A stretch of DNA of 32,547 nt from a virus (taxonomy: Duplodnaviria; Heunggongvirae; Uroviricota; Caudoviricetes): positions 1-32,547 of the IMG/VR virus record IMGVR_UViG_2718217787_000004; one strand, 5' to 3'. How positions within the stretch are numbered: position 1 is the first letter of the stretch; every line of letters starts with the position of its first letter. The position numbers were made by a program. Shown one piece after another: positions 1-3,000 of this stretch.

Positions 1-3000
1 TTAACGCAATAATGGACAATCTGGTGGTAATCGACAACGCAACGCCGCCGGAAGTATTTCAATATGGAAGTTTTGCCCACTCAACGGTTCGCCATCAAGA
101 TTAAAAGTGATTTCGTGTGGGGCTTGTATATCAAACCACGACGAAGCGCCTTCGATAATATTCGGGTTATCTTCGTCAGATTTTAAGGTTGATACGAGAG
201 CCGGAAGAATTTCATCGCCGGTAAAAATGCGCAGTTGCAGCAAGCCATCGTTAATTAACGCGTTCGGGCACAATTGTTGACCGCCACCGGCCTGACGCCC
301 GTTACCAATACCAATGACCAGGGCGTCACCTTGCCAGTGAAAGTTTTCACCGCGGATTTCACAACGGTCCGGTTGCAGAGTATCCATGCGCATTAAGCCA
401 TGAATGATGTAAGAGACGCCACCCAGCGCGGCTTTTAATTTTTCCGGCGTTTCTGTGGTAATACGCGTCCCAAATCCGCCTGTCGCCATATTAATAAAAC
501 AGGTTTGTTTGTTGACCTGCGCCATATCTATCGCAATGGCGTTACCGGCAATTGCCAGTTTCAGCGCCTTATCCAGTGCCTCAGGAATCCCTACACTGGT
601 GGCAAAATCATTGGCGGTTCCTAATGGCAAAATTCCCAGCGCGGGTATGTCATCCCCCTCACACTGAATCAACGCCGTAGAAACTTCATTAATGGTGCCA
701 TCGCCACCACCGGCAATCACCGTTGCGACGCCCAACTTCCGGGCCTCCTCTACATATCGTGCGGCATCGCCTTTCTCCCAGGTGACCCGCACATGGATCG
801 TCATTCCTTCCTCACGCAACAGCATAATTGCTTCGCGCAAGGGTAGATTGTCAGTACTTTTGCCATTAAGAATCAGTAAGCTGGCGGGAAATTCTGCCAT
901 GATCGTATGTGCCTTTATGATTGGTCTATAGATAGTGTAGAGCAGAAAAGAAAAGGTGGAGTCAGAACAGGATGAAAGTCGGAGGATAAATAGTCAGTTC
1001 AAGTATGGAGGATTCAGTGGTTACCACCAGGAGCTTGCAATGGGGACAGCGAATACTAACGGCAGCCACCGATAAATTTCAAAAAAGAGCATATACCTAA
1101 TATTCAACTAAACAGTGGCTTCTTCAATATAATATATTAAAGCCTCCATGGAGTTACCCGGAAGGGCCTCCATGTCCGTAATTCCTACTTATGTAGGAAA
1201 TGTTTTACAGAACATTTATTATAATCCTATTCAATTATAATAATCATGCCATTATTATATTTAAACACTAGAGAGTGTCGTTGGTATTTAATGGGGGAAG
1301 GTGAGATGAAAAAGATAGCTGCTATATCATTAATTAGTGTTTTTCTTATGTCTGGTTGTGCTGTGCATAATGATGAGACAAGTATCGGTAAATTTGGTCT
1401 TGCATATAAAAGTAATATTCAGCGTAAACTCGATAACCAATACTACACCGAAGCCGAAGCTTCTTTAGCCAGGGGCAGAATATCTGGTGCAGAAAATATA
1501 GTAAAAAATGATGCAGCCCATTTCTGTGTTACTCAGGGCAAAAAAATGCAGATAGTTGACCTGAAGACAGAAGGTGCAGGATTACATGGCGTCGCTCGTC
1601 TGACATTCAAATGTGGAGAGTGAGAATATTTTTTGGTAAGCGTCAAACATGCGCGTTCTGGTTGTGCTTAGCCGGAACCTGTGCGAGCACGATGCCGTTA
1701 CGTGAAAGGCATCGTGCTATGAAGGGAGATTCTATCGATGTGGTCAATGGAAGACGGTTATCAGGGATAGGGCTTATGCATAAAAAATAAGCCCGTGTAA
1801 GGGAGATTTAGGGTGTCATCAGTAGGGGCTTTCAACGGTACAATGCGGGTTTGAGCGGCATAAATGACCACTGAAAGCCCTTAAACGTTACTCTACTGTG
1901 GACACTGTGTGGACACTCTCGGCCTCAGTACCACCTCTCAGCGGATTAAGAGAAATGGCGTCCTGAAGGTACTCTGGAGCAAAATGAGCGTAAACCATAG
2001 TTTGCTCAATCCGCGTGTGACCTAGTATCCGTTGTAGCGTGATAATACTTCCTCCATTAATCATGAAATGAGTGGCAAAGCTGTGCCTTAGTGCATGTGT
2101 GGCTTGCCCCATTGGCAAATCCGGTTTTATTGCTTTCATTGTTCGTCTGAAGCGAGGGTAATCAGCATCAGGGAATAAAAAACCTCGTTTGTTATCCGCG
2201 ATCATTTTGGCAACAGCCTCTGAGATCGGGACGGTGCGTGGTTTGTTTGTTTTCGTTTTAACAAACGTGACGCGGTTATGAATGATATTTTCTGCTTTCA
2301 AACGAGCTGCTTCTCCCCAACGTGCTCCAGTACTCAGGCAAAGAATCGCAATCTTTTTGTTGTCGCCGTCAAGAGCTGCGAGCAGTAAGGCAATTTCTTC
2401 CTGCGTGAGATAGCCTGTGTCTGGTTTTTCCTCCTTAAGCCTTTTTGTCCCTCTGATAGGGTGCTCACCAAAGTATAACTCCGCTTCAATCAGGGCTGTA
2501 AACATGCCGCTAATACATGTTAAATCACGATTGATACTCGAAGGTTTAATACCCTGACTTCTTCGGGTGGCGCAGTATTGGCTGATAAGCGATTTCGTAA
2601 TTTGAAATGCGCATGGGTCATTCGTTATTTTTGTGAAGATTTCAATTTTTCCAAGATTAGATTTCCCATGCTCTTCGTGTTTACCCTTTAAATCCCACCA
2701 GATCTGTGTCAGCTCCGACAGACGTCGCTTGTCTGTTGGTTTTGATAGCCATTCTTTATTGTGGTGGTTGTACAACGTGTATTTCTCGAAAGCGACAGCT
2801 TCGCTTTTCTTATCAAACTTCCTACGGATGCGTTTTCCATTACGTCCAGTAGGGCGGATGTCCACTTCATATCGACCATCATCGAGTTTTTTGATTGCCA
2901 TCAGAAAACCCTCCGAGTGGTGTGTTTTTTTGCGACTACTAATCGTTTTTTTCGTGGTGGCTGAAATTTAGCCACCAATAGTAGGCACTTGTGATGAATA

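Follow-up and report, generated by a model that had tools for sequence, protein, structure and literature searches.

The window, by which we mean the whole stretch of 32,547 nt analyzed here (IMG/VR record IMGVR_UViG_2718217787_000004), begins in Escherichia coli chromosomal DNA and ends within a phage genome, exactly on the stop codon of ogr (Table 1). The host part contains yegS and yegR, and a non-coding interval (1624..1887) then separates the yegR stop codon, at 1623, from that of the minus-strand int gene. Within this interval lies a 27-bp att core, whose placement between yegR and the 3′ end of int, as proposed in the initial annotation, is borne out by the annotation and by ORF coordinates. 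Phage genes, including those for a toxin, follow to the right. A perfect 11-bp inverted repeat (AGCACGATGCC ... GGCATCGTGCT) with an 11-nt loop was also observed downstream of yegR, at 1686..1718; it has no T-tract on either strand and is kept in the empty site, and its K-12 copy differs in the loop. A further observation on this flank concerns the deposited genome of Escherichia phage vB_EcoM-720R8 (ON470606.1), which contains host yegR and the flank to the left of attL, so that the record seems to have been excerpted from a lysogen, with its end placed past the real prophage boundary.

Table 1. Features of the window, with coordinates, strand and the basis of each assignment.
Feature	Position	Strand	Basis or remark
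yegS, lipid kinase, left chromosomal flank	1..900	-	RefSeq annotation of matching genome; ORF list
yegR, small orphan lipoprotein; host gene nearest the junction	1306..1623	+	Annotation
Decayed P-arm-like stretch in host DNA, also in empty sites	1721..1769	+	Local alignment to P2 P arm
attL core	1782..1808	+	27-bp sequence common to phage attP and host attB; P2 Int exchanges strands within it
Predicted Cox (excisionase) binding region, P′ arm	1825..1898	+	Collinear homology to P2 annotation (L001 645..718, offset +1180)
Predicted P′ arm-type Int-binding direct repeats (ctGTGGACActgTGTGGACAct)	1896..1922	+	P2 annotation (L001 716..742); sequence identical to P2
int, tyrosine integrase, convergent on the core	1888..2901	-	335/337 aa identical to P2 Int
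Immunity repressor C	3017..3316	-	Collinear with P2 gene C
cox, excision directionality factor and Pc repressor	3431..3706	+	Annotated "regulatory phage cox family protein"; collinear with P2 cox
cdtC-cdtB-cdtA (cytolethal distending toxin type V)	7833..9975	-	Annotation; variable TO region between replication gene A and portal gene Q
ogr, last phage gene; stop codon is the window end	32329..32547	+	Annotation

The core sequence, AAAAAATAAGCCCGTGTAAGGGAGATT, is the sole match to itself in the 32.5 kb of the window, even when up to three mismatches are allowed, and it was found in none of 100 dinucleotide-preserving shuffles of the window, where none would be expected by chance. It is identical at 27/27 positions to the P2 core annotated as "attP" and "Int attP core" (AF063097 24356..24382), and the identification made in the initial annotation holds. 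Homology between P2 and the window starts at 1781 and continues through int at 98.8%. A 1-kb query spanning the junction found matches in essentially every complete E. coli genome, and in most of these the host homology stopped at 1808, the last base of the core. The limits of host and phage homology therefore meet and overlap in the core alone, which fits the expectation for a site-specific recombination junction.

Previous work has described the architecture of P2-type att sites, with an arm-type Int-binding consensus of tgTGGaCa (PMC3448106). Against the annotated P2 sites, the arm-type Int repeats on both the P′ and the P arm, as well as the IHF and Cox regions, appear to be conserved in this prophage. 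Immediately to the right of the attL core, 98/100 nucleotides are identical to the P2 attP arm, and the 337-aa Int protein carries the Pfam domains Int_N (PF24624) and Phage_integrase (PF00589).

The right junction was read outside the window, from the genome of E. coli O157:H7 strain MB41-1 (NZ_CP039834.1), which matches the whole window with two SNPs. The initial annotation had predicted that attR would lie just past ogr, beyond the end of the window, and had suggested searching about 200 bp downstream for a second core, whose absence would have been a refutation. This was a fair test, and the junction passed it in MB41-1, the genome from which attR was read in place of the window's own contig: an exact copy lies at 32649..32675 in window-equivalent coordinates, 101 bp past the ogr stop. 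Reading rightward from ogr in this genome, we found the ogr terminator, the P arm, the IHF site and the attR core, followed by cyaR and yegQ. The P-arm side to the left of the attR core, comprising the ogr terminator, the P-arm Int repeats and the IHF region, is identical to P2 at 96/100 positions. In an unbiased repeat search of MB41-1, no long direct repeat other than the pair of cores bounded the element; the two copies are 30,867 bp apart. The boundaries of the prophage are thus fixed at 1782/1809 on the left and at 32648/32675 (window-equivalent) on the right, which gives the element a length of 30,867 bp. On the P arm of this prophage, the second of the arm-type Int repeats has TATGGACG, as compared to TGTGGACG in P2, a difference of two base changes. 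Read at L002 32586..32613 in MB41-1, just beyond the window, this second repeat is ATATATGGACG, while P2 and the K-12 remnant both have ATGTGTGGACG.

Comparison with an unoccupied site completed the picture. In the near-isogenic O157:H7 strain 7409, the locus consists of yegS, yegR, one core and yegQ, without phage genes. The alignment with the empty site that the initial annotation had called for gave a clear result: the 150 bp to the left of the single core in strain 7409 are identical to the left flank of attL, and the 150 bp to its right are identical to the right flank of attR. The flanks of strain 7409 therefore reproduce the formal relationship in which attB and attP give rise to attL and attR, and the cores of attL, attR, attB and attP are mutually identical (27/27).

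We then assessed how often this site is occupied by searching 5,426 complete E. coli genomes with queries that span each type of junction. A contiguous empty attB was present in about 4,208 of them. The P2-type attL seen here, consisting of host flank, core and P2-type P′ arm, occurred in 816 genomes (~15%), and a junction of the K-12 remnant type in another class of 356 (~7%). The 816 genomes with a P2-type attL indicate that the locus is a repeatedly used insertion site of the P2 family, in agreement with the recurrent use claimed in the initial annotation. That annotation had also proposed that finding the 27-mer in phage-free yegR loci would count against a prophage junction. This reasoning was misconceived, because an empty attB needs one copy of the core, and the empty attB of the 4,208 genomes carries it.

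Taken together, these observations lead us to interpret the core in the window as the attL (BOP′) core, where host DNA meets the left end of a P2-type prophage (Peduovirus, about 30.9 kb). The phage entered the E. coli attB by Int-mediated recombination; this attB agrees with the P2 attP core at 27/27 positions and forms the 27-nt 3′ end of cyaR, a small RNA gene. We place the probability of this reading at about 0.97, and none of the observations speaks against it. The attL is real, resembles the textbook case and is already known; it leaves the understanding of P2 integration unchanged, and its practical use is for annotation.

The overlap with cyaR was absent from the initial annotation. 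The attB lies between yegR and yegQ, and the core constitutes the end of cyaR (ryeE) on the minus strand, comprising the terminator loop, the descending 3′ half of the stem and the U-tail. CyaR is a CRP-dependent and Hfq-dependent sRNA. The Rfam model CyaR_RyeE (RF00112) matched on the minus strand with 100.7 bits over model positions 1-85, the match ending inside the core. Its score is equal in the lysogen, the empty site and K-12, and the sRNA gene is full-length after integration. A complete 11-bp terminator hairpin was predicted at attR. At attL, which holds the 3′ half alone, no terminator was predicted, and a role of the attL copy as a terminator for int is thus unsupported. With a full CyaR at attR and a half-terminator at attL, integration evidently spares cyaR and moves a 27-nt copy of its end to the int side. 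The locus therefore offers a worked example of an sRNA terminator that serves as a phage att site while the sRNA gene itself is undisrupted.

An overlap between the P2 attB and the 3′ end of cyaR is reportedly noted in the sRNA literature. Our search, which covered sources other than the primary papers (Barreiro and Haggard-Ljungquist, 1992; De Lay and Gottesman, 2009; Svab et al., 2013), returned none that expressly equates the P2 attB with the end of cyaR. P2-like attR junctions at cyaR were also seen in other genera, at L093, L118 (Citrobacter youngae), L106, L050 and L083; the carriers include C. youngae, an Enterobacter and further isolates. In these junctions the P arm lies 62-63 bp from the core, and the cores follow the local variant of the cyaR terminator, differing from the P2 core at one to three bases. 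Such junctions indicate that the cyaR terminator is an att site for relatives of P2 beyond E. coli.

Several steps can be distinguished in the formation of this lysogen. Phage attP recombined with the E. coli attB at the 3′ end of cyaR by Int-mediated site-specific recombination. Strand exchange inside the common 27 bp left one core at each end of the prophage, as is seen in the sequence, and the attR core together with the body of cyaR restores the sRNA gene exactly, which can likewise be read from the assembled junction. The core at attL is a non-functional half-terminator; beside it lie the P′ arm, which carries the predicted Cox sites and arm-type Int repeats, and the 3′ terminus of int. 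On the basis of established P2 biology, integration would be carried out by Int together with IHF, and excision would require Int, IHF and Cox acting at both junctions.

The element between the two cores is thereby identified: it is a P2-like, CDT-V-converting prophage that occupies the standard P2 site in E. coli O157:H7. In MB41-1, the annotation shows a complete P2 gene order without pseudogene flags, so that the description of an intact phage in the initial annotation appears apt as far as gene content, a full P2 set without pseudogenes, can indicate. The region from A to Q (TO region) is 99.4-99.5% identical to the corresponding regions of KC618326, a prophage of strain T22, and KF322032, phage fiAA91-ss. 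P2-like prophages carrying cdt-V in the TO region are known from O157 strains, and such CDT-V-converting phages are reportedly the subject of Allue-Guardia et al. (2011) and Svab et al. (2013).

A second region of the prophage also drew our attention. Two inverted 27-nt repeats, 81% complementary, are located at 23308..23334, inside a tail-fibre gene, and at 25210..25236. Between them lie tail-fibre and assembly genes of opposite orientation (24387..25261, minus strand), beside a gene for a serine-type "recombinase family protein" (25292..25885). The region 23308..25885 is possibly an invertible tail-fibre segment, and its layout would be analogous to those of Mu Gin or P1 Cin.

Other explanations of the left junction were also considered. 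One accepts that the attL is true and supposes that the prophage is locked or defective, so that it yields neither excision nor plaques and the att sites are relics. P2-type prophages are in fact non-inducible and excise rarely, the site is occupied by a decayed remnant in the 356 genomes mentioned above, and one arm-type repeat of the P arm contains the two base differences from P2. However, both cores are perfect, Int shares 99% identity with its P2 counterpart, and int, cox, C and the full morphogenetic set are annotated without pseudogenes. Moreover, phage genomes have been obtained for close CDT-V P2-like relatives (KF322032, fiAA91-ss). We therefore regard a locked prophage as unlikely.

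The remaining two explanations are refuted. P2 can also insert at secondary sites that match its core only in part, and insertion at such an imperfect site would have produced hybrid cores, but the 27/27 identity of all four cores leaves this with a negligible probability. Equally negligible is the suggestion that the 27-mer is a common terminator-like or repeated element beside yegR whose likeness to P2 is coincidental: it does belong to the intrinsic terminator of cyaR, yet it returned no matches in shuffled sequence, equals the annotated attP core exactly, bounds the prophage as a direct repeat, and is flanked in the empty site by the left side of attL and the right side of attR.

With the window thus read as the left junction of an Int-integrated P2-type prophage, its relation to the cryptic remnant of K-12 can be specified. 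The initial annotation had mentioned a D-gene fragment and ogrK next to yegR in K-12, and these are seen in genomes of the K-12 type. One K-12-derived genome carries, in this order, yegR, a truncated core, the final 213 bp of D, ogrK, the P arm, a full core, cyaR and yegQ. The attL core of K-12 is shortened to AAAAAAATAAGCCCGTGTA, with an extra A, and is joined directly to the 3′ part of D (yegZ, an annotated pseudogene). This fusion indicates that the remnant arose by a deletion from within the attL core into D. The remnant and the window share the chromosomal site, the orientation, the attR core and the P arm. K-12, in contrast, keeps only about 0.64 kb, while the window represents a complete prophage with a perfect attL. 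The possibility that the window itself is a K-12-type remnant is excluded by its approximately 44 annotated CDS, the full prophage and the perfect attL core.

The host DNA to the left of the core contains a further similarity to P2. Within the P-arm-like stretch of Table 1, which also occurs at L003 3822..3870 and in L004 and L064, the sequence AAGGGAGATT (1722..1731) corresponds to the last 10 nt of the core and precedes TCGATGTGGTCAATG (1735..1749), a 15-nt exact match to the P-arm Int-binding sequence of P2. The latter lies about 47 bp to the left of the core, as compared to 63 bp for the copy in P2 itself. In three divergent alleles of E. coli, host DNA and P arm are collinear along roughly 40 nt, with about 80% identity and one intact arm-type Int site, and none of 1000-2000 shuffles reached the observed score. 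Among 120 species-representative cyaR loci, the host-type spacing of 47 bp was seen in E. coli only, whereas the phage-type spacing of 62-63 bp marks P2-like attR junctions at cyaR.

This stretch belongs to a segment of about 800 bp that contains yegR in E. coli (window ~987..1781) and is AT-rich, with 30-37% GC around 1100-1500. Segment and gene are absent in Escherichia sp. E1V33, Klebsiella, Kluyvera sp. 142359, C. amalonaticus and C. sedlakii, where the upstream region of yegS lies 0-84 nt from the cyaR terminator. In E1V33, homology to the window breaks off at about 986-992, just where the core begins. No Pfam family was assigned to YegR, and a search for its homologues in phage genomes returned two records only, both of which include host flank. 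A candidate degenerate third core, or 3′ pseudo-copy of cyaR, at 985..1050, which would have marked the left end of the segment, was rejected as not significant, with equal scores in 476/3,000 shuffles and 35/330 control segments.

The yegR segment is inserted precisely beside the att core, on its left, and may represent what remains of an ancient integrated element, an older P2-like insertion at this att site whose P arm can still be recognized. The canonical empty P2 attB of E. coli might itself be an attR-like scar of an ancient P2-like element, a proposal that we put forward tentatively and consider somewhat less probable than its opposite. If it were true, yegR would be a domesticated prophage leftover, and each present-day attL at this locus would have a P-arm-like Int site in its host flank, with a possible effect on site preference or recombination directionality. 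The observation of a fossil P arm together with the yegR segment may be new.

The closest known system is P2 itself. The P2 attP/attB system at the perfect-match site of E. coli, called locI in the P2 literature, was reportedly described by Yu and colleagues in 1989. Barreiro and Haggard-Ljungquist, writing in the Journal of Bacteriology in 1992, are said to have described the P2 att sites and the P2-like remnant of K-12, and their work is reportedly cited for secondary sites as well. The prophage in the window shares with P2 the identical 27-bp core, an Int protein of 99% identity and the placement of int and ogr on either side of attP. The P′ repeats, the Cox region, the P arm, the IHF region and the ogr terminator are likewise collinear and 96-98% identical. 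It is nevertheless not P2 itself: the unit measures 30.9 kb as opposed to 33.6 kb, the TO region holds cdtABC in place of tin/old, and there is an extra recombinase along with inverted tail-fibre genes, in an inversion-type layout that is absent from P2. The CDT-V P2-like phages KC618326 and KF322032 combine a P2 backbone with cdtC-cdtB-cdtA in the same way as the window, and their records consist of phage or prophage genomes only.

A broader comparison is offered by the temperate phages and islands that enter the 3′ ends of tRNA, tmRNA or sRNA genes and make the gene whole again with a copy of their own, such as 186, HP1 and Fels-2/SopE-phi, the last at ssrA (PMC3448106). As with these integrators in general, the attB here extends into the 3′ end of a structured RNA gene, which is still intact after integration. 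The present case differs from those integrators in its target, the terminator of an Hfq-dependent sRNA that is not tRNA-like, and in a common segment of just 27 nt.
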